Shown one piece after another: positions 37,631-48,627 of a stretch of DNA of 64,000 nucleotides (position 1 is its first letter; each line of letters opens with the position of its first letter). Below the pieces are notes generated by a model. It was not told where the DNA came from and searched no databases. It saw only the letters and a program-made list of their open reading frames with translations. The stretch covers positions 192,001 to 256,000 of the forward strand of contig JAUVNS010000006.1 in NCBI GenBank assembly GCA_030599585.1, written 5' to 3'. This stretch comes from Promethearchaeota archaeon. GTDB lineage: Archaea > Asgardarchaeota > Lokiarchaeia > Sigyniarchaeales > SOKP01. Position numbers and translations under genes: made by a program.

Positions 37631-38041
37631 ATGCCAAAAAATTTCCCTCTGAATCATAAAGGGTTCCATCCGTTTGGAGATTTAATTGGTTTAAAATTTA
37701 CTAAACTCGAAAAGGGATATTCCCAATGCACTTTAGACATTGTTGACAAATTGCTAAATCCTCACAAAGTAGTACATGGGGGAGTATTGTACTCAATGGC
37801 AGATACGGGGATGGGGGCAGCAGCGTATACCACTTTAGCTAAAAACGAACTTTGTGCAACAATTGAAATCAAAATTAATTACTTTAAAGCTACAAGGGCT
37901 GGTGTGCTTACTTGCAATACAAAAGTAATACATCAAGGCAAGAAAATTGTTGCAATGGATTCTGAAATTTTAAACGACGGTCAAATTGTAGCAAAAGCTA
38001 TGGGAACTTATTCTATATTTAAACCGAAAAATAATTCTTAA
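37631..38041 (+). CDS. PaaI-family hotdog thioesterase
   Basis: LLNPHKVVHGGVLYSMADTGMGAA, TIEIKINYF. Confidence 0.92.
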   Translation: MPKNFPLNHKGFHPFGDLIGLKFTKLEKGYSQCTLDIVDKLLNPHKVVHGGVLYSMADTGMGAAAYTTLAKNELCATIEIKINYFKATRAGVLTCNTKVIHQGKKIVAMDSEILNDGQIVAKAMGTYSIFKPKNNS

Positions 38042-38091
38042 ATCCTACTATTGGACAAAGGTTACATTAAATAAGTTTAATATTGATTATT

Positions 38092-39027
38092 CTATTGTTT
38101 CCTATTGAGAATTACGCCCAAGTTACGGGGGTATACGGATAAGTAGTAGCCTAAGCCGTGTTCTTCAACTTTATTTTTAGTTTCTTCAGGTAAGTTTTCT
38201 ACGGACATTCCTTTCAAGAGTAATCTTGTCTCTTCCTCGCTAAAAGATGGTCCAGGTTCGATCCAATTTATAACTTTCTCGTTTGCAGGGCACACTTTTT
38301 GACAATGAAGGCAACCAACTAAGCAATTATGCCAGGACGGATCAATCCAGTCCGGAAAAGGCACATCAACGGAATGTTCGTTATGAAAAGTTAAACACCG
38401 TTCGGCGCGTAAAAGAAACTCATCTTTAGGAATGGCTCCAGTAGGGCAACTACGGACACATGCAGAACACTCCTTGCAAAGATCCATCATTCGTAATTCT
38501 TGCCAATTGTCTTGTTCGTAAGGAAAATCGGAGTAAAACGTAAACAAACGATGAAAACTACCCATTCCTTGTATATATGTAATATTATTTCTACCGTATT
38601 CAGCTAATCCGACACGTACAGCTAAAGTTTTTTGAGGTAGACGAGCAAATTCTACGCTATAGCCGCTCGGATTTAACAAGTCACTTAAAAACGCCTTTGA
38701 TTCTTTGATTAACGCTCCACCATGTAAATAAGTTGGGGGTACTATCAGAGGTACTTCTTTATTTTTCCAGGTAAAAACGATTTTGTATTGGGGTTGTGGC
38801 ATTGCTATCATAAAAAGAGATTTTACCTCACCAAAATCCGTCTTAGGTTCAAATTCAAAATATTTTTCATACTCTTTGTAGAATGCTGGATCTAAAAGCT
38901 TCTCGTCGTTAAAAGTTTTAACTGCGATTTGTAAATCTGGGATGCGTTTAGCCGTAATGACTTTTCCTTTATATCCTTTTAATTCTAATATTTTGTAAAA
39001 TTTCTCAATAATCGTATTATCACTCAT
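38092..39027 (-). CDS. QueG / reductive-dehalogenase-like cobalamin-Fe-S protein
   Basis: LPQKTLAVRVGLAEYGRNNI...GSF; CKECSACVRSCPTGAI; RCLTFHNE; LVGCLHCQKVCPAN. Confidence 0.85.
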   Translation of the reverse strand: MSDNTIIEKFYKILELKGYKGKVITAKRIPDLQIAVKTFNDEKLLDPAFYKEYEKYFEFEPKTDFGEVKSLFMIAMPQPQYKIVFTWKNKEVPLIVPPTYLHGGALIKESKAFLSDLLNPSGYSVEFARLPQKTLAVRVGLAEYGRNNITYIQGMGSFHRLFTFYSDFPYEQDNWQELRMMDLCKECSACVRSCPTGAIPKDEFLLRAERCLTFHNEHSVDVPFPDWIDPSWHNCLVGCLHCQKVCPANEKVINWIEPGPSFSEEETRLLLKGMSVENLPEETKNKVEEHGLGYYLSVYPRNLGVILNRKQ

Positions 39028-39300
39028 CGTCGCTTAGGCTCTATGCAATATTAATTAAATAATACTCGACACTTAATAGTCTTATTTCATTTTTTATTGA
39101 TTTTAGTAATTAAAATATAATTAAAACAATCACTAGCAAATTTGATAGGTTTATTGGGATAATTGATCGTTTTACCACTAAATTTAGCTAAAATAAACAT
39201 TTTTGGTGGTAAAAAAGATAGTTTTATTAATAAATAGGGTAGAATGTTTAAATATTAGAATTATATTTAAAATCTTAATACATAAAAGGTGTTAAATTAA

Positions 39301-40026
39301 ATGGCTCTTCCGAATATCGATATATTAAATGGAATTACTGGTCTAGAAATTATTCTTAGTGGCTATATATTAGGCTTTATTCTTATTTTCAAGCATGCAC
39401 GAAAAGCACCAAACAAAAAAGTTAAAAAAAACTTAATATTAAGCGGAATTGGTTTGATCACACTTTTTCAAGCATGGTTTGGCGTTTCAGCAAGTTTTAC
39501 ATTAATGGTGTTAGGATTTGACGCTCTACCGGGCGTCCCAATAAATGTTCAGGTATTTTCATATGCATGGGGACCAACTATAGGAGTTCCCATTTGGGCG
39601 TATATCACATCGAGTTTATTCAAAAAAGGTCGCTACAAAATACCTATTACGGGAATATTCCTAATATTGAGCATTATTTTTGCGGTGTTCGTCTATTTTG
39701 TTCCTGGTTCTACTTCCTGGCATGCATCACCAAGTGGATTACCTGAAACAGGAATCAGAGGCGTAGCTTTGTATACGCTAGGGATTATGTTGATTATAAT
39801 GATGGTATTTCTAGGACCTATCGCTATTATATCGGGTTTAAAAATAGAGGACAAAAGCGCTAAATGGAAGAGATTCATGTTTGGTTTTGGGATAATAATG
39901 GGGTCCCTCTTTGGAATTGTCGATGCGGGAGTTTCAGGTCTTCCCTTAATTGGTTTAGCTATTGTCAAAGCAGGTATTTTTACATCAATTTTTCTAATAT
40001 ATGAAGGAATAGACAAAGGAACATAA
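39301..40026 (+). CDS. 7-TM membrane protein (putative sensor)
   Basis: Seven hydrophobic segments with short basic loops; first gene of a tight 3-gene run. Confidence 0.7.
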   Translation: MALPNIDILNGITGLEIILSGYILGFILIFKHARKAPNKKVKKNLILSGIGLITLFQAWFGVSASFTLMVLGFDALPGVPINVQVFSYAWGPTIGVPIWAYITSSLFKKGRYKIPITGIFLILSIIFAVFVYFVPGSTSWHASPSGLPETGIRGVALYTLGIMLIIMMVFLGPIAIISGLKIEDKSAKWKRFMFGFGIIMGSLFGIVDAGVSGLPLIGLAIVKAGIFTSIFLIYEGIDKGT

Positions 40027-40052
40027 TTTTAACAAATCAGAAATAAAAAGAG

Positions 40053-41789
40053 TTGAGTATAATGGGGATTGAGCAAAGATTAGGTAAAGATAAGTCGTTA
40101 AAAAAACGAATCATGACGACTATGGTCATTAGTATTTTAATACCGTTCATGATTTTAACCTTAGTATTAATATTAATGCTAATATCGAATATAGACGAAT
40201 TTATTGTGGATGGTCACAGTCAACTTGAAGTACTCAAACTACCGATAATCTTATCTTTCTCTCTTATTGCGGTAGGAGTTATTTTTATAGTACTTTTTGG
40301 AGTCATTAGAATCGCTAATAGAATTACATTACCTATTATTGATTTAACTCATTCATTAGAAAATATTACTGAAGGAGATCTGTCTCAAGAAATTATTATT
40401 GATGGCAGGATCAGAGGGAATGAGATTGGTTTGCTCGCCCAATCGTTTCAAAGTTTATTAGTAACAATGCGTTTGGGAAATAAAAGTTATTATCAAGGAG
40501 ATTTAACTGTCGCGTTCGCAAATTATAACGCAGCTTTAGATTTATTTAAATCAACAAAAGATCACCATGGGCAAGGAATGTGTTTGAATAACATTGGAAA
40601 TATCTATAGAAATTGGGGCGATTTAAAAGAAGCAATGGAATCTTACGATAAGGCTATTGAAATTGCTTTAGAACACGACGATATTTCTGGCTTAGGTCCT
40701 CGCTACAATAATAGAGGGCTTCTTTTCCTTTCAGAAGAAAACTGGACAAAAGCAATGAACGATTTTAACAAGGCTCTTGAGATGGATAAGGAAATGGGAG
40801 ATGAAGAAGGAATAGCCTCAAGAAAAAGAAACATAGGTATACTTCACATGCTTAAGAAAGAGTTAGATCTAGCTCAAGAGTTCCTAGATGAGGCAATTCA
40901 GTTAGATAGTAAATGGGAATATAATGTTGGATTAGCGGAAGATGAGTTTCAACTAGGAAGACTTGCTTTATTGAAGAACAATAATGAATTAGCGGAAGAG
41001 CATTTTAAAGATTCTTTAAAATTTGCTGAAGGTCTTGGAAACTATCCACTAATGAAAAATGTTCTTGAAATATTAGTAGATTTGTATGAAAATCAAGGAA
41101 ATACAACGCTCCATCATAAGGCGGAGAACGAGCTTTCAAAATTAACCACTGTACTCGTTCGAAAAAAAGACGTAATATTTGTAATAGATCAATCAGGAAG
41201 CATGCATGAATGGGGAAAAATGGGAGCCGCTCGAACAGGAGCTTTAGGAGTTTTTAACGAAACGATTAACATCGGGGATCGAATAGCTGTTATAGGATTC
41301 CATTCTAAAACATTAGTACATCTAAAATTGACTGAGAAGAAAGGAGCTTTTTCTGACATTACAGATATTTTTAACAATTTGAAAGCTCAACCATATAACA
41401 CTCGCTTATACGATTCTATAGCTCAAGCGATAGAAATGTTAATAGAAGCACCAAGAATTAGGGGTGAAGAATCTCAGGAACGCCTGAAATGGGTCGTTAC
41501 TTTAACAGATGGAGAAGATAACGAAAGTAAAAACTATAATCCAAAAAAAATATCAAAATTAATTCAAACTATCAAACCACCCCTGAATTTTATATTAATT
41601 GGAATTGGCCCCGAACTTAAAAAATATCATCGTAAGATGACTGATATGGTTAATGCCACTCCACGTGGAAAATATATCACCATTTATTCTGTTAAAAATG
41701 TTCAAAAACGAATAGAAAATGCTTTTAAAACAGTTAAGGAAATTATGGCATCATCTGAAATAGAAGGTTTCGTACCGGAGGAAGGATAA
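40053..41789 (+). CDS. 2TM-HAMP-TPR-VWA signalling protein
   Basis: Two TM helices; [14 protein letters not shown]...ITEGDL...[10 protein letters not shown]; ~5 TPRs ([12 protein letters not shown]...A...Y.KA); VWA with intact MIDAS DQSGS...T(RLYDSI)...LTDGEDN. Confidence 0.88.
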
Positions 41790-41791
41790 AA

Positions 41792-42244
41792 ATGTCAATA
41801 CAAAAACAACGCAAATTTGGAATCAGACAACAAATTCTTGTTAGTTTCGTTATTTTATGCATAATTGCTTTGGGGAGTATTGCTATAACTGCAGCAATAT
41901 TCAATAATATGATCGGCGATAATATAGTTGGTGCTACACTTGAAGAACAAGAGCAAATTGTTGAAAACTTACAGACACAGATGGCTATAATATTTGTTTC
42001 GCTATGGGAAATAATCGTAATAAGTCTTTTTATAGGCTTAAAATTATCTGATTCAGTAGTGAAACCAATACATAAGTTGACTAATATAGCACTAAAATTA
42101 TGCACTCACGATCTAAAAACAGTTTCTTTTGAAGAGATAGACACTGATTTTGATGAAGAGATAGAGGTGCAAAATACAGAAATAGGTAATTTAACAGAAG
42201 CTTTTAAAAAGTTAGTGAAAAAAGTTAAAGAGGATATGGAATAG
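41792..42244 (+). CDS. 2TM-HAMP-only protein (no output domain)
   Basis: FGIRQQIL + TM, second [12 protein letters not shown]...[14 protein letters not shown], then stop. Confidence 0.8.
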
Positions 42245-42407
42245 AGACTGTTCCTGCGATACGAGCAATTTTCCATTCTAATTACTCACCTATATAATTA
42301 GATAAAAGTTGTACAATTCCAACAAAACTCTCTAATATTTATTTAAGTGATTAAATCTACTAACATTATGGAATATTAAATTATAATTTATTTTATTGAG
42401 ATATTAA

Positions 42408-44237
42408 ATGTCAATCCAATTAATTAACGTTAAACCACTTTGGAATCGTCGTTTTAAAAGAGCAGTCTATTCTTGCATAATAGCAAATTTAATAGGAGAT
42501 CCTGAGCCTGAAGTAATAGGATGCTCGTTTAGTGCTGAAATGAAGGCGTTTGATTTAACCGGTAAGGAGGTATTCCTCACCGAATTCTCTTCGAACATAA
42601 CATGTTTCGACATCTCTTCGGTTAGTAAAGAGAAAACCATAGAATTAATATCAGGTTCGTTAGATGGAACAGTATATGTAATGGATATAAAAGGAAATCC
42701 CATTTGGGAAGCGGATTTAAAATCCCCTATTCTGTGTATGGAAACAGGTGATATTATAGCGGATTCTAGGAGTGAGGTTATAGTTGGGCTCGAAAATCAA
42801 CGATTAATTGGATTAGATAATGAAGGGAAGGAATTCCTTAAATATGTGGCAAAAGAAACAATACTAGATTGCACTATCGGTTACCTCTCAGATGATTTTT
42901 TAGGGAAAATTTTCGTACTGCTTAAATCGGGAAAGCTTGTTAATGTCGATAACAAAGGTAATTCAGTAGTTGTTTCACAACTTCAAAATAGCCCGACAAG
43001 CATCGATTTTTGTGAATTTTACGGACAACCTACTTTAATCATAGGTGATAGGGCTGGATCAATAAAAATCATTAATTCTGACTTAGAAATCATTGGTGAA
43101 TACAGCTTAGAAGATAAAATTACAAGTATTGACAACATTATCATGCTTTCAGAATATAACAAAGATGTTTTCTTGGTTGTAGCATCAAAAAACACCATTA
43201 CTCTTTTAAGTTTAAGGAAAGGAAATATAATAGAATCCAACAAGAAACTGGTTAAAATTGATGCACAAACACAACCGCCTTCTGTTGTCGAAACAGAACC
43301 TGTAACTGAACCAATAACTGAACAACCAACAAAAAAACAACCTGATCCAGATGTATCCTCTATAACTACCCCCATTGCATCAGATGAGGTGCCCCAAACC
43401 GTCCGTGTGCTTCGAGGAGGCCAAATTGAAGGAGGAGATTACATTTTTAAAGTCAAAGTAATTAACAATAAAATCTATAACATAACTGATGTTGATATTC
43501 ATATACTTTCCTACCCTGAAGAGAGTTTGGTTTTATCGCGCGTCGATGGACACCAAAAAAGTTCTACAGATAGAGCAAAATTCCATAAGATTTCTAAGGG
43601 GGGAGGTTTTGTTAGCCCATCTTTTGTTTTTAAACCAAAAAAGGACTGCTTAAAAGGAAAAATTCACGCAGTCATAAATTTCATTGACGAAGAAGATCGA
43701 ATCAAGACAATAAACGTTGAACCTCACGACATCCGAATTATTTGTGGATTACTGAGACCAAAAAAGGTAACTAGTGAAGAGTTTGACGAGCTTACCAGCG
43801 ATCTTCTTACTTTCAAAAAAGTTGGTCAAGACCTTACAATCTACTACAAACCCGAGCAACTTTACCAGAAATTATTTGTTTTATTAAAAAATAAAAACTT
43901 TGCAATTATTGATTCCGAACAACAAGATTCAAGTGGGGAATTCTTAGGAGTTATAAAAGGTTTTGCAGAAGGAACTTTTAAAAAAAATGCTGTAGGATTG
44001 AAATTATCCATAACAGGGACTACGGGTGAACAATTTTCGACATTAAAAGTAGAAGTTTTTGCAGAAGATAAAGATATGACTCCCTCTATCATCAATGAGT
44101 TTGAAAATGCCGTAAATCCTCAATCTTGTCCAGAATGTGAAGGAAATATACCCATTGATCTTATTAAGCAAATGATGACAGGTTCTATTGCATATTGTGA
44201 AGCTTGTGGCTCACAACTACACGAACTAAGTGAATAA
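42408..44237 (+). CDS. Beta-propeller + Pro/Thr linker + adaptin/COP-type ear (Ig sandwich) and platform domain + zinc ribbon
   Basis: FG-GAP/WD-like blades (ELISGSLDGTVYVMD, GDIIADSRSEVIVG, LIIGDRAGSIKII); linker 43261-43400; FKVKVIN...ITDV...HDIRIICGLLRPKKVTSEEF; C-terminal CPEC...CEACG. Confidence 0.65.
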   Translation: MSIQLINVKPLWNRRFKRAVYSCIIANLIGDPEPEVIGCSFSAEMKAFDLTGKEVFLTEFSSNITCFDISSVSKEKTIELISGSLDGTVYVMDIKGNPIWEADLKSPILCMETGDIIADSRSEVIVGLENQRLIGLDNEGKEFLKYVAKETILDCTIGYLSDDFLGKIFVLLKSGKLVNVDNKGNSVVVSQLQNSPTSIDFCEFYGQPTLIIGDRAGSIKIINSDLEIIGEYSLEDKITSIDNIIMLSEYNKDVFLVVASKNTITLLSLRKGNIIESNKKLVKIDAQTQPPSVVETEPVTEPITEQPTKKQPDPDVSSITTPIASDEVPQTVRVLRGGQIEGGDYIFKVKVINNKIYNITDVDIHILSYPEESLVLSRVDGHQKSSTDRAKFHKISKGGGFVSPSFVFKPKKDCLKGKIHAVINFIDEEDRIKTINVEPHDIRIICGLLRPKKVTSEEFDELTSDLLTFKKVGQDLTIYYKPEQLYQKLFVLLKNKNFAIIDSEQQDSSGEFLGVIKGFAEGTFKKNAVGLKLSITGTTGEQFSTLKVEVFAEDKDMTPSIINEFENAVNPQSCPECEGNIPIDLIKQMMTGSIAYCEACGSQLHELSE

Positions 44238-44276
44238 TAAAAAAAATTAATTGAAAGAATTCTTTGTTTTTGGTTT

Positions 44277-45131
44277 TTAAAGGTTAGTCATCTCTAAACT
44301 GATTTCCCACAATCGTTTAGCATATTCTTCGTTATATGATTCTTTAGAAGAAGGTTTTGTTTTCTTTTTAGTGAAATATTTTCCTGTAATTCCCTCTACT
44401 TCTGGTGAAGTGGCTAAGAAAATTGAAGTTTCAGCACCAATTTCAGGGCTTTTAAAGAATTTTTTTGCGAAACCCTTACTGGTTGATGACCGATCTCGAC
44501 CCAAATTAGTATTAATAAGCCCGGGGTGGACAACATTTACGGTTACATTAGAACCTTCTAATTTTCTGCTGAGCTCATAAGATACAAGAGTCATTGCTAA
44601 TTTTGAACTTCCGTACAACCCCATAAACCGTCCTTTCTTGTTTTCTCTTTGTAAATCCTCAAAATCTATCTTCCCCATTCTATGTGCCGCTGAACCTACA
44701 TTAATGATGCGACTTGGTGCTGATTTTTTTAATACACCAAGTAGTAAATTAGTCAGTAAAAAAGGTGCAAGGTGGTTAACGGCAAAATTCATCTCAAAAC
44801 CATCTACAGAATAAACTTTTTTTGATAACATAACTCCAGCGTTATTTATCAGAACATGAAGTTTATCATATTTGCTCCTGAATTCATTTACAAAATTGCG
44901 AATTTCTTTTTGGGAGGATAAATCACACAAAAATAAATCTATATTCTCGTTGCCAGTGATTTCGATTATCTCATTTTGTGCTGATTCACCGCGTTCTTTA
45001 TTGCGACATAACATTACTATTGTGGCGTTCATCTTTGCTAACTCAATAGCGGTAGCTTTGCCAATGCCGGAGTTCGCACCGGTTATTATACATATTTTAT
45101 TTTGCATACTCTTGATTGAAATTAAATACAT
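44277..45131 (-). CDS. Short-chain dehydrogenase/reductase (retinol dehydrogenase / WWOX-like)
   Basis: TGANSGIG, LINNAGV, VNHLAPFLLT, YGSSK, VHPG. Confidence 0.95.
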   Translation of the reverse strand: MYLISIKSMQNKICIITGANSGIGKATAIELAKMNATIVMLCRNKERGESAQNEIIEITGNENIDLFLCDLSSQKEIRNFVNEFRSKYDKLHVLINNAGVMLSKKVYSVDGFEMNFAVNHLAPFLLTNLLLGVLKKSAPSRIINVGSAAHRMGKIDFEDLQRENKKGRFMGLYGSSKLAMTLVSYELSRKLEGSNVTVNVVHPGLINTNLGRDRSSTSKGFAKKFFKSPEIGAETSIFLATSPEVEGITGKYFTKKKTKPSSKESYNEEYAKRLWEISLEMTNL

Positions 45132-45242
45132 TTCAATTTTCTTATTATTTCTTATATAGTAAAAATAAAGTTTAGAAATCCTTAAAATTCATATGGTTAT
45201 GTAATATTCCCCATTTAAGTGTATAATTTAAGGTAAAAAATC

Positions 45243-46646
45243 ATGAACATAATAGAAGAACCTTCAAGAAAAACACCTATTATGGCTGAAACCGATGTTA
45301 TAATCGTTGGAGGAGGTCCAGCTGGGCTTTCAGCTTCTATCGCTGCTGCGAGAGAAGGAGCAAACACGATACTTGTTGAACGCTACGGCTGTTTTGGAGG
45401 AGTTATAACACAAACGATGGTTGGAACTATTGCTTGGTATCGATACGCAAAAACTGTTGATGCAGGTGGAATTGGGTTAGAATTCGAAACATTAGCGAAA
45501 GACACGAATGGAAGCATTAATGTATTCGGAAACATAAAGAATAAAGAAATGATTAAAACCATAGAACAGGAGGGGTTGATGGTTAATGGAGTTCCAACAT
45601 ATGAAATCTTAGATACTGAAATGTTTAAATATATAGCAGACAAGCTCGTACAAGATGCAAACATAACACCTATACTCCATTGCTCTGCTGTTGATGCGAT
45701 AATGGAAGATCAAACAATTAAAGGAATTATCACGGAAAGTAAATCGGGGAGACAAGCGATTTTAGCAAAGCGAGTAATAGATGCCACGGGAGATGCCGAT
45801 ATTGCGTATCATTCAGGAGTGCCTTTTCGTAAAAGCCCAAAGAACGAATTAATGGAAGTAACGGTTAATTATGGTTGTAGTGGAATAAATATTGGCAAAT
45901 TTCTTATGTATGTATATTTAAATCCTGGTAGTATAGGAGACTGGGGTGATACTTCTGGAAAGGAAGACAGTTCTTTTAGCACATATTTGGTAGAACCATT
46001 TAACAAGGCCAAAGAAGCTGGTGAGATACCAAAAGATGTTGATATAGAAAGTTTTTGGACCAATTATACAGATGCGGGAGAAATTACATCTTTCAATGGG
46101 ATTCACATGACAGATATAGACCCTACAGATGTATGGGACCTCACGAAAGCAGAAATAGAAGGTAGAAAGCGAGTTATGTGGGCAGTTGAAGCATTAAAGA
46201 AGTATACTCCCGGTTTTAAAAAAGCAAGACTAAGAACGATCGGAGCATCTTTGGGTACCAGAGAATCGAGAAAAATTATAGGTGAATATGAGATCACCGA
46301 AAACGATGTAAGAAATGAGGGGCGTTTCGATGATTCCATTGGGATATGCCCTGAGTTCATAGACGGTTATGGCATAGCGATCATGCCTACATCAGGCCGA
46401 TATTTTCAAGTTCCATATGGGATTATCGTTCCTCAGAAGGTAGAAAACCTACTCGTAGTTGGTCGTTGTGTGGCAGGTGATAAAATATCTCACGCAGCTA
46501 CCCGACAGATGTGTTGTTGTACAGTTACCGGTCAAGGAGCAGGAGTTGCTGCCGCTATTTCGTACAAAGACAATGTATCTTGTCGAGACGTTAGTATTTC
46601 TAAGGTTCAAACAAGTCTTAAGAAACAAGGAGTTAGAATTGAATAA
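45243..46646 (+). CDS. FAD-dependent oxidoreductase (FAD_oxidored family)
   Basis: DVIIVGGGPAG, VIDATGDAD, GTRESRKI.G.Y, YFQVPYGIIVP..VENLLVVGRC. Confidence 0.9.
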   Translation: MNIIEEPSRKTPIMAETDVIIVGGGPAGLSASIAAAREGANTILVERYGCFGGVITQTMVGTIAWYRYAKTVDAGGIGLEFETLAKDTNGSINVFGNIKNKEMIKTIEQEGLMVNGVPTYEILDTEMFKYIADKLVQDANITPILHCSAVDAIMEDQTIKGIITESKSGRQAILAKRVIDATGDADIAYHSGVPFRKSPKNELMEVTVNYGCSGINIGKFLMYVYLNPGSIGDWGDTSGKEDSSFSTYLVEPFNKAKEAGEIPKDVDIESFWTNYTDAGEITSFNGIHMTDIDPTDVWDLTKAEIEGRKRVMWAVEALKKYTPGFKKARLRTIGASLGTRESRKIIGEYEITENDVRNEGRFDDSIGICPEFIDGYGIAIMPTSGRYFQVPYGIIVPQKVENLLVVGRCVAGDKISHAATRQMCCCTVTGQGAGVAAAISYKDNVSCRDVSISKVQTSLKKQGVRIE

Positions 46647-46767: not shown

Positions 46768-47637
46768 TTGTCAAAGAAGTTGACGATCTATAATTTTTCG
46801 GTTATTACGAGTGATGGTTTTCCTTATTATACCTTGGATGTGAAGGAAGCTCCAAACAACACAAAATTAAATTTGCGATTTTTTGATTTTTCGAAAGAAG
46901 AACTAAATCATCAATCTGATTTTGAAGTATCTAATTCTTTTGAATTAAATGCCGGATTAGTTTCAGCATTATTTAAATTCGCACGAGCGATGTCTAAGAA
47001 CATTCATATACTTGAATTTAATTCTGACGAATCACTATACTTTGAAAAAGATAAAACTCAATTTTTAGGAGATGTTTTAATCACATGTCAAACAGAGTCG
47101 TATCTATTTCATAAATCAGTTTACGCAAAAATTAAGTTGATTTACGATTCGCTCATTACGTATAAAATTCCTTTAGAATCTGCTATCGAGATATTACCCG
47201 TTCAAGAGGAAAAAATCTACAATATTTTAACCGATTTTGAAGCAAAAGCCCGGGTTAGTGAACATAAGACTCAATTAAAACGATTAGGAAACGATTTTCT
47301 AAAAGAGATGAAAAATTACGGCTTAAGGGATGTTTGTATTACGTCGTTCGATCTTTCTCCCATAATGATTCTCGGAAAAAAATACACCTCTGACGATATC
47401 CACGAAATTTTAAGAAATATTGGAAACGTTCCAGAAATTCCACCATTAAATTGGGTGTATCGCCAATCAACTCACGCTGGCGAGCAAATATGGGTTTACA
47501 TCTATAAATCGGATGTTGGACCAACTATTGAAGGCTTATTTGAACCCTATCTTTATTTACTTTTTTGCGATCTTAACTCCTACCTTGGAGAAATACCAGA
47601 AGTTCTTGGAAATAAAATTAATAGGATTTTAAGCTAG
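46768..47637 (+). CDS. Longin-like domain protein with a second alpha/beta (profilin/roadblock-like) domain
   Basis: IYNFSVITSDGFPYY and LNAGLVSALFKFARAM...IHILEF resemble Asgard longin beta1-beta2/alpha1; a second module starts at LRDVCITSFDLSPI. Confidence 0.5.
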   Translation: MSKKLTIYNFSVITSDGFPYYTLDVKEAPNNTKLNLRFFDFSKEELNHQSDFEVSNSFELNAGLVSALFKFARAMSKNIHILEFNSDESLYFEKDKTQFLGDVLITCQTESYLFHKSVYAKIKLIYDSLITYKIPLESAIEILPVQEEKIYNILTDFEAKARVSEHKTQLKRLGNDFLKEMKNYGLRDVCITSFDLSPIMILGKKYTSDDIHEILRNIGNVPEIPPLNWVYRQSTHAGEQIWVYIYKSDVGPTIEGLFEPYLYLLFCDLNSYLGEIPEVLGNKINRILS

Positions 47638-47705: not shown

Positions 47706-47945
47706 TTAGAAGATATGACAGATTCCAATTTCTCCGTTATTTAAGTAGCTTTCAAAATTACCGTTTAGCTGTGACTTAAATTCCCTATCACTCTGAGCAA
47801 TGATTTTGCTAAAGGGAGTGTTTTGAATATTTCCTTGCTTATCGTAAATTAAGAATTGATACGAAAATGTAGGGATTGACTCGTATAAATGTGGTACCTT
47901 TATCATGGTGTGAATTCTGTATCCATTGATCTTGAGATCTTCCAT
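47706..47945 (-). CDS. Small hypothetical protein, paralog A
   Basis: MEDLKINGYRIH..IKVP.LYE...FSYQFLIY.K...IQN.PFS.I...F.SYLN.G; closely similar to 48355-48627. Confidence 0.75.
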   Translation of the reverse strand: MEDLKINGYRIHTMIKVPHLYESIPTFSYQFLIYDKQGNIQNTPFSKIIAQSDREFKSQLNGNFESYLNNGEIGICHIF

Positions 47946-48354: not shown

Positions 48355-48627
48355 TTAAGTCAAATTTTCTGATAAATTTTTTATCAATTTAGAAATAGGA
48401 TATGCTTCAATTACTCCGTAATTTAAGTAACTTTTAAAATTTTCTTTTAATTTAGATTTAAATTCAGCATCGGTTTTAGCATTGATTCTACTGAATGGGT
48501 AGTTCTGAATTTCACTATTTTTATTGTAAATTAAAAATTGGTATGAATATGTTAGGATTTTCTCGTATAATTGCGGTACCTTTATAGCGATATGAATTCT
48601 ATATCCTTTAATCTTGAAATCTTCCAT
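48355..48627 (-). CDS. Small hypothetical protein, paralog B
   Basis: MEDFKIKGYRIHIAIKVPQLYEKILTYSYQFLIYNKNSEIQNYPFSRI...FKSYLNYG. Confidence 0.75.
   Translation of the reverse strand: MEDFKIKGYRIHIAIKVPQLYEKILTYSYQFLIYNKNSEIQNYPFSRINAKTDAEFKSKLKENFKSYLNYGVIEAYPISKLIKNLSENLT

Follow-up and report, generated by a model that had tools for sequence, protein, structure and literature searches.

A beta-propeller protein with a predicted adaptin-type ear, encoded beside HAMP, TPR and vWA genes in a Promethearchaeota archaeon

Does an Asgard archaeon encode a relative of the BBSome and of vesicle coats, or has a familiar order of domains been put together from parts with other histories? This question is raised by a gene in a 64,000-nucleotide (nt) stretch of DNA from Promethearchaeota archaeon (assembly GCA_030599585.1, contig JAUVNS010000006.1, positions 192,001-256,000 of the forward strand), here called the window, by which the whole stretch is meant. 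The window is AT-rich (GC about 0.29-0.35) and belongs to a genome assembly of 4.85 Mb in 52 contigs. The open reading frame (ORF) 42408-44237 (+) is open and its product has 609 amino acids (aa). An initial annotation had described this product as a propeller, a Pro/Thr linker, a beta-sandwich, an alpha/beta region and a zinc ribbon, and had taken it for a protocoatomer or BBS-like protein. Eukaryotic vesicle coats use ear domains as docking hubs, and the presence of this two-lobed fold in Asgard archaea is of interest for how older parts were put together into trafficking machinery. Here, we report that such an ear is predicted in the C-terminal half of the protein and that the protein looks like a receptor-side adaptor made from coat-type parts, and not like a forerunner of the ciliary BBSome.

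Predicted fold of the protein and of its ear

We built a full-chain AlphaFold2 model on 29 orthologues and a second AlphaFold model of aa 321-609 on 41 diverse proteins that share the C-terminal module; the latter reached a predicted local confidence (pLDDT) of 87.5 and a predicted template modelling score (pTM) of 0.75. The full model reproduced the order of parts that had been read from the sequence, and refined the propeller to six blades. It consists of the propeller at aa 1-280 (pLDDT about 90), disorder at 288-330 (pLDDT <50), the sandwich at 332-445, the alpha/beta region at 456-567 and a short zinc ribbon. The gene is accordingly divided as follows:

42408..43247, + strand: predicted six-bladed beta-propeller with FG-GAP/PQQ-like blades, aa 1-280 (AlphaFold2 model and repeat alignment)
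43248..43397, + strand: flexible hinge, aa 281-330 (low pLDDT, composition, length variation)
43398..43748, + strand: predicted ear lobe 1, an Ig-like/GAE-like beta-sandwich, aa 331-447 (C-terminal model and VIA matches)
43749..44117, + strand: predicted ear lobe 2, an alpha/beta platform (TBP-like), aa 448-570, preceded by the invariant ICGLL junction (structure alignments)
44118..44237, + strand: C4 zinc ribbon CPEC-x19-CEAC, aa 571-605, with the stop codon (Cys conservation)

The start of the ORF at Met1 is supported by full-length orthologues, which align from this residue. There are 28 full-length relatives with 41-92% identity, alignable from the first Met to the last Cys pair, and in their alignment the C-terminal half is better conserved than the propeller. 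The public relatives are labelled Promethearchaeota, Lokiarchaeota or other Asgard metagenome-assembled genomes (MAGs). Residues 1-26 are modelled as propeller strands, and the absence of a signal peptide was judged by inspection and from the predicted fold, not by a dedicated predictor. In relatives, ectodomain-type regions are followed by a transmembrane (TM) helix and, shortly after it, by the ear, an order that puts the ear on the cytoplasmic side. The 609-aa protein thus looks soluble and cytoplasmic, as had been proposed for it.

The most conserved stretch of the family is the junction HDIRIICGLLRPKK..EEF between the two lobes, and P439, I442, I445, C446, G447, L448, L449 and F459 are invariant in the 29 orthologues. 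The initial annotation had compared this junction to the sandwich-to-platform transition of adaptin appendages, and structural comparison of the ear model bears this out. The top Foldseek match in the PDB was a 243-residue COPI chain, 9qpq_H (E 5.4e-10, TM-scores 0.55/0.63, 250 columns), followed by the AP2 alpha, gamma-COP and beta2 appendages; E values of the adaptin/COPI matches ranged from 5e-10 to 1e-6, while BBS7 and BBS9 appeared at about 6e-5. The ear model was also subjected to VIA-align, an independent all-against-representatives structural alignment, with the following matches:

alpha-adaptin appendage 1w80_A: both lobes, Z 15.5, 213 residues
beta2 appendage 3h1z_A: both lobes, Z 14.6, 211 residues
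AP4 beta4 platform 2mj7: lobe 2, Z 13.1, root-mean-square deviation 2.4, 114 residues
gamma-COP appendage 1r4x_A: both lobes, Z 13.1, 216 residues
BBS9 6vbu_9: both lobes, Z 11.1, 190 residues
generic Ig sandwiches: single lobe, Z 11.3 or lower

Lobe 1 was matched by the GAE domain of GGA2 (Z 10.3, 103 residues aligned), by the gamma2-adaptin ear (Z 9.8) and by the sandwich parts of the alpha, beta2 and gamma-COP appendages. Since only appendages and BBS9 cover both lobes, the ear and platform proposed for the C-terminal half stand as a confidently predicted two-lobed adaptin/COPI appendage fold. By the same model comparisons, the predicted ear is nearer to COPI/AP2 ears than to those of BBS9 or BBS7.

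The likeness to adaptin/COPI appendages (PDB 1w80, 3h1z/1e42, 2mj7, 1r4x/1pzd, 9qpq_H, 5nzr_B) extends beyond the succession of an Ig-like sandwich and an alpha/beta platform. In both cases the ear lies toward the C-terminal end and is preceded by a flexible hinge. The hinge of the 609-aa protein (aa 281-330) contains 9 Pro, 7 Thr, 6 Val, 5 Gln and 5 Glu among its 50 residues and has a net charge of -6; it is poorly conserved and differs in length between orthologues. Its predicted disorder, Pro/Thr/Glu/Gln richness and variable length all indicate flexibility. The differences are also clear. Large subunits of adaptin and COPI complexes carry the ear on an alpha-solenoid (HEAT/ARM) trunk, whereas here it is joined to a predicted six-bladed propeller; a zinc ribbon follows the ear, and there is no detectable sequence similarity to the eukaryotic domains. 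None of the Pfam appendage families (Alpha_adaptinC2, B2-adapt-app_C, COP-gamma_platf and the like) matched the 609-aa protein or 41 ear relatives at E up to 1, and the ear profile found no appendage among PDB sequences at E up to 10, only zinc-ribbon noise. Clathrin, AP and COPI partners were not identified, though no search was aimed at them. Adaptin/COPI ears have, in platform and sandwich, pockets for short linear motifs (of the FxDxF, DPF/W and FxxxW types), and two conserved platform loops of the 609-aa protein, GxAxGKYxxK and GEDxAM, are candidate ligand sites.

The four ribbon cysteines (C574, C577, C597 and C600) are kept in at least 90% of orthologues and are invariant across the 41 wider ear relatives. 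Pfam gave a weak Zn_ribbon_LysW match for this segment. Two further cysteines, C414 in the DC motif of the sandwich (43647-43649) and C446 in the ICGLL junction (43743-43745), are invariant in orthologues and nearly so in the wider ear family. We also considered a Sec23/24-like reading, suggested by a sandwich with a zinc finger and a vWA protein encoded next door. It was dropped: ArnB matches the sandwich only, at the level of generic Ig domains (Z 10.1), no Sec23/24 chain is among the VIA matches listed for the ear model, and zf-Sec23_Sec24 is weakly matched by 13 of the 41 ear relatives, always below the cut-off.

Archaeal adaptin ears as such are already known. Makarova et al. 2024 described archaeal adaptin appendage regions, Asgard ones included, with IG and TBP lobes, some with a Zn ribbon and some on propeller proteins. 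The 609-aa protein resembles these in its two lobes and its ribbon, and the 'adaptin-like' proteins of that study in having a propeller at the N-terminus, where some of them bear PQQ/WD40 propellers; the Halo_adaptin propeller proteins of the same study differ in that they have IG-like domains only. What is new is the architecture and the gene context of such an ear: in the literature searched, we found no description of the propeller-hinge-ear-ribbon arrangement or of the sensor cassette described below. The main text of a 2026 Nature Microbiology paper on eukaryotic signature proteins (ESPs) does not mention BBS, adaptin or appendage. A 2026 preprint names, as already catalogued, a 'BBS7/ITFG2' Asgard-eukaryote structural cluster, which may or may not be the family of the 609-aa protein.

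The propeller and the resemblance to BBSome subunits

The model of the propeller has 24 strands in a pattern that recurs every 44 aa, and six 44-aa sequence repeats can be aligned within its 280 residues (core G..(D/S)G..h.hhD..G, loop GD...D...E-hhhG, of FG-GAP flavour); together, these point to six blades. At the level of sequence, the matches are broad. With Pfam, the 609-aa protein matched ACSF4 (7.9e-9) and, below the cut-off, BBS2_Mid (4e-4); its scores for BBS2_Mid (20.9 bits) and the BBS7 propeller (16.3 bits) compare with a Pfam cut-off of 27. Across the 29 orthologues, the following weak matches were obtained:

Pfam BBS2_Mid: 29 of 29 orthologues, best E 7e-10
Pfam Itfg2: 21 of 29 orthologues, best E 3.4e-6
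Pfam Beta-prop_BBS7: 19 of 29 orthologues, best E 2.2e-7
Pfam PHTB1_N: 10 of 29 orthologues, best E 9.3e-7

A few orthologues exceed the cut-off of 27, namely P0065 (39.4 bits) and P0058 (28.1) for BBS2_Mid and P0043 (30.8) for the BBS7 propeller. However, equal or stronger blade matches to PQQ-like ACSF4 and to the propeller of bacterial lambda-carrageenase (CGLA) were each found in all 29. The family profile gave weak matches to VPS15, ITFG2 (5e-4) and BBS1 (0.02) among PDB sequences. VIA-align of the 609-aa model covered the propeller only, and since beta'-COP, WDR5, NHL and designed propellers tied there (Z 22.7-24.2), rigid-body alignment does not decide the nearest propeller class. The consistent weak matches to BBS2_Mid, Itfg2, BBS7 and PHTB1_N stand, but rigid-body comparison does not tell the propeller apart from generic WD40, NHL and beta'-COP ones. 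In our reading, the propeller belongs to a broad class of FG-GAP/PQQ-like blades, in which the BBS and ITFG2 propellers are also found, and has no specific kinship to either.

ITFG2 of KICSTOR (PDB 9v9n, 9van, 9o5a) has FG-GAP-type blades like those of the 609-aa protein. The evidence for this likeness, which is weak throughout, consists of the profile match and the Itfg2 matches given above and a Foldseek TM-score of 0.48 on the propeller. ITFG2 aligned over the propeller only, and these searches returned no ITFG2 match to the ear, the hinge or the zinc ribbon. We also considered an exported PQQ-type enzyme; this was dropped, as no cofactor family scored above the cut-off, the Cys4 ribbon is present and the ear of relatives is on the cytoplasmic side. 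Ear-less variants of the protein exist (P0117, 333 aa; P0123, 348 aa), in which the same propeller (30-34% identity) is joined by a short linker to a zinc ribbon of the same type, without the Ig and platform lobes. One ear-less variant (G285:C611:1-729) comes from a sister family of the same order and lies at a contig edge.

With the whole chain as query, Foldseek ranked BBS9, BBS7, BBS2 and BBS1 first (E 1e-16 to 1e-12, 490-700 columns; propeller-only matches stood at about 1e-11). These proteins (PDB 6vbu, 6xt9, 6voa) have the same order of an N-terminal propeller, a linker, a GAE-like sandwich and a platform, and in the model the 609-aa protein appears to share the GAE-plus-platform pair of BBSome core subunits. 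Kinship proper would mean a common ancestor with BBS1/2/7/9 in which propeller, GAE and platform were already fused, and a protein that forms a membrane coat or cargo lattice with its TPR neighbour. The ranking speaks for it, as do the BBS2_Mid matches in every orthologue, a few of them above the cut-off, the reach of the family profile to ITFG2 and BBS1, the alignment of BBS9 to the ear, the 'BBS7/ITFG2' cluster of the 2026 preprint, and the TPR protein encoded next door, which recalls the BBS4 and BBS8 partners of BBS propellers. BBS propellers are seven-bladed, at odds with the six blades predicted here. A coiled coil separates propeller and GAE in the BBSome core and a helical domain follows the platform, where the 609-aa protein has a disordered hinge free of helices and a 35-aa zinc ribbon; both a coiled coil and a C-terminal helical domain are in the published domain list of BBS9 (PMC7018512). 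The nearer COPI/AP ears, the equal or stronger ACSF4 and lambda-carrageenase blades and the failure of rigid-body alignment to single out BBS propellers also count against it. The BBS-like layout that had been claimed therefore holds for the order of domains and the Foldseek ranking, but not for the blade number, the coiled coil or the helical end domain, and we consider true kinship with the BBSome core very unlikely.

The ear and zinc ribbon on other Asgard proteins

An exhaustive HMMER search (E up to 1e-3) returned 779 cluster representatives. Most of them match only aa ~325-605, and do so at the C-terminal end of proteins of 260-2,870 residues, whose N-terminal parts include WD40, beta-helix/NosD with PKD, SBBP repeats, TIR and an APC permease. 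Among 123 non-orthologous relatives, a crude hydropathy scan predicted a TM helix upstream of the ear in 92, and in 82 the last such helix lies no more than 200 aa from the ear, often 10-50 aa. The ear is at the very C-terminus in 98 of the 123, and the zinc ribbon is kept in 89. All named ear relatives are Hel-, Thor- or Lokiarchaeota. The ear with its zinc ribbon is therefore a mobile Asgard module, carried by many unrelated proteins.

The 29 propeller-linked ears were all recovered as one clade (SH-aLRT 100) when a maximum-likelihood tree of ears was computed. Closest to this clade (support 88) are the ears of polytopic membrane proteins, an APC permease among them. Because the 29 ears are a single clade placed beside those of membrane proteins, the tree points to one fusion, in which a propeller would have been joined to an existing tail module. 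The fusion is not a one-off, since full-length orthologues reach down to 40% identity. A shuffled ear, with the propeller fusion as one derived clade of ears, is not what would be expected of a common fused ancestor with BBS1/2/7/9.

The distribution argues in the same direction. We searched a sample of 301 genomes from the whole phylum (E up to 1e-30). Only in the window's own family were full-length matches seen, namely in the host genome and in 9 of 68 others (3 of 27 in the host's own genus), and many complete genomes of this family lack the protein. None was found in the 29 other families sampled, and 27 of these showed no match of any kind at this threshold. Ear-only matches abound in a second family, where 60 of 76 genomes have them and multiple copies and tandem arrays are frequent, and one genome of a third family has such a match. 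Some related contigs bear the NCBI labels Hermod-, Thor- or Hodarchaeota, which do not readily fit the coded taxonomy. The claim of protocoatomer or BBS-like kinship, or of coat function, is not supported: the ear is mobile and nearer to COPI/AP2 ears, the lineage is narrow and patchy, and the gene sits in a prokaryotic Cache/HAMP sensor cassette (see below). Direct BBSome or coat ancestry is poorly supported, and the BBSome-like domain order should not be taken for ancestry.

Several further arrangements of the ear were seen. P0085 and similar Thorarchaeota-type ORFs of family f9, of ~760 aa (G161:C239, G200:C53), have a helical N-terminus followed by two complete ear-plus-ribbon modules in tandem. 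In several f9 genomes, neighbouring genes with ear tails form arrays (G254:C51 at 20886, 23859 and 26615; G140:C2 at 25770, 28767 and 29811). The host genome has three ear proteins: the 609-aa protein and two others that lack the terminal zinc ribbon, one of 694 aa with LRR, coiled coil, ear and helical tail (G000:C28:110224-114003, L004) and one of 790 aa with multiple zinc fingers, helical repeats, ear and helical tail (G000:C8:100404-104090, L005).

These two proteins bear on another explanation, in which the ear would dock the sensor complex on the Asgard ESCRT/ubiquitin machinery in the manner of ESCRT-0, and receptors would be sorted or down-regulated. Archaeal adaptin-appendage proteins have been proposed as functional analogues of ESCRT-0. 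Makarova et al. 2024 read the appendage regions as interaction hubs linked to ESCRT, having found them both in ESCRT neighbourhoods of archaea and in multidomain proteins of Asgard archaea that are ESCRT-I-like. In the host genome, the two other ear proteins join the ear to LRR/coiled-coil or Zn-finger/winged-helix-like parts with a helical tail, and the zinc-finger model Vps36 NZF is weakly matched by 6 of the 41 ear relatives. However, these matches, like those to the Sec23/24 finger, are all below the cut-off, and Pfam found no SB or Vps28_C domain in the 609-aa protein. Unlike the proteins of Makarova et al. 2024, the family resides in a Cache/HAMP/TPR/vWA cassette: no ESCRT gene is present in the conserved cassette, and both Snf7 (ESCRT-III) genes of the host genome are on other contigs, C22 and C40. 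An ESCRT-linked sorting adaptor is thus unlikely in our view.

Sensor genes and a possible adaptor role

The gene of the propeller-ear protein is the last of four on the same strand, separated in order by gaps of 26, 2 and 163 nt. The three genes before it are:

39301..40026, + strand: 241-aa polytopic membrane protein with about 6-7 TM helices, first gene of the cassette (ORF and sequence)
40053..41789, + strand: 578-aa 2TM-HAMP-TPR-vWA membrane protein with a DxSxS MIDAS motif (Pfam HAMP 87-136, TPR 141-~350, VWA 373-548)
41792..42244, + strand: 150-aa 2TM protein with a HAMP-like end (weak Pfam HAMP, E 0.04; NCBIfam matches to the TM-HAMP parts of histidine kinases)

We compared this neighbourhood with 19 loci of other species. 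In 15 of them, including all orthologues with 40% identity, the HAMP-TPR-vWA gene is upstream of the propeller-ear gene, and the small HAMP gene is directly upstream in 16; wherever the flank is long enough, the two are found together directly upstream, also beside the orthologues of 40% identity. The genes downstream are not conserved. The polytopic protein, which has no Pfam family, is encoded upstream in the closer loci (L008, L009, L010, L013, L019, L020 and L022) at 65-72% identity. A distant subfamily has no separate gene for it; there, the neighbouring genes encode a dCache-HAMP-TPR-vWA protein of 872 aa and a dCache protein of 507 aa, the latter being the counterpart of the 150-aa HAMP protein. 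One MAG holds both the closer and the distant subfamily. Of 101 genomes of the family, 13 have the HAMP-TPR-vWA gene. Eight of the 13 had shown the propeller-ear gene in the sample of 301 genomes, and in all eight the two genes are side by side on the same contig. The BBSome is recruited by an Arf-like GTPase; the host genome has 78 matches to the Arf GTPase profile, none of them in the cassette and the nearest about 10 kb away. For the four cassette proteins, PADLOC gave nothing beyond a generic TPR match and NCBIfam nothing specific; Rfam found nothing in 38000-46000.

Since the gene is always found beside genes of membrane sensors, we favour a role on the receptor side: the 609-aa protein would be the soluble cytoplasmic adaptor of a kinase-free sensor cassette, to which it supplies an ear in trans. 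We give this reading about an even chance of being right. The sensors would be the polytopic protein and two short 2TM-HAMP proteins in the present locus, or two dCache-HAMP proteins in the distant subfamily, and the output of one of them would not be a kinase but its cytoplasmic TPR repeats and MIDAS-bearing vWA domain. A signal transmitted through HAMP may alter the TPR/vWA module, which would then bind or release the propeller end of the 609-aa protein; the hinge-tethered ear could in turn act as a docking hub for a partner. This partner is probably common to the many Asgard membrane proteins that have an ear and zinc ribbon on their cytoplasmic tails, and the 609-aa protein would give in trans the ear that those receptors carry in cis. 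That the propeller end contacts the TPR/vWA module is a guess, made reasonable by analogy with the BBSome, in which the propellers of BBS1 and BBS9 dock on the TPR proteins BBS4 and BBS8 (PMC7018512); by this analogy, the TPR protein is a likely partner of the 609-aa protein.

Several points weigh against this adaptor role. The 163-nt AT-rich gap before the propeller-ear gene may hold a promoter of its own, so co-transcription of the cassette is only a possibility. In two metatranscriptome libraries there are contigs with 90-99% identity to parts of each of the four genes, and one contig spans the junction of the vWA and HAMP genes; since these are contigs, possibly from relatives and with DNA carry-over, they give a weak hint of expression only, and the same applies to co-transcription. 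The vWA, TPR and HAMP domains are all promiscuous, and the output may be other than the recruitment of the 609-aa protein. The TM counts that put the ear next to membranes come from a crude scan, the ear tree from a quick search with a midpoint root only, and a sequence-level link from the archaeal ear to eukaryotic ears was found neither with Pfam nor among PDB sequences.

The cassette could also be of a conflict or immunity type, in which the vWA/TPR sensor and the propeller-ear protein would sense a threat and the ear or an inserted effector would trigger the response. Kaur et al. 2020 reportedly described vWA-centred ternary conflict systems. The accessory, patchy occurrence of the genes (about 13% of family genomes) fits such a function, and so does one metagenome protein, P0056, which has a TIR domain resembling ThsB of Thoeris between propeller and ear. 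However, the TIR variant was seen only once, the generic TPR match was all that PADLOC returned for the four proteins, and a MoxR ATPase, a nuclease or another effector was not found in the cassette; moreover, dCache domains usually bind small extracellular ligands. We hold a conflict function to be very doubtful. P0056 has 783 aa and 61% identity to the 609-aa protein, with the TIR at aa 332-435 (Pfam TIR_2 4e-15; ThsB-like in PADLOC). As its ear nests inside the orthologue clade, the insertion is secondary.

With the proposed adaptor role, the ear would have two settings in Asgard archaea: that of a reusable cytoplasmic handle on membrane proteins, and that of a part which a propeller protein, associated with a kinase-free Cache/HAMP/TPR/vWA sensor, supplies in trans. 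The binding partner of the ear would show whether its recruitment serves receptor sorting, a step toward coats, or something unrelated. A bolder proposal is that the TPR solenoid, the beta-propeller and the appendage together make up a minimal receptor-coupled coat or adaptor that has common ancestry with BBS1/2/7/9. If it were true, the propeller-hinge-ear protein would be a living relative of the module behind ciliary and vesicle cargo adaptors, but we judge this highly improbable.

At least half of the sampled words from the 4.9-kb stretch 39301-44237 were present in 15 public metagenome runs of sediment, cold-seep and subsurface origin, from about 10 studies; the lineage and its cassette are thus widespread in marine sediments. 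Downstream of the cassette, a 289-aa ORF at 46768-47637 (+), with no Pfam family, is 96% conserved in the locus of the closest relative (L006) and not in the other loci. Further on lie two small paralogous ORFs of 79 and 90 aa, 47706-47945 (-) and 48355-48627 (-), about 400 nt apart, whose N-terminal halves are very similar and begin with MED.KI.GYRIH.

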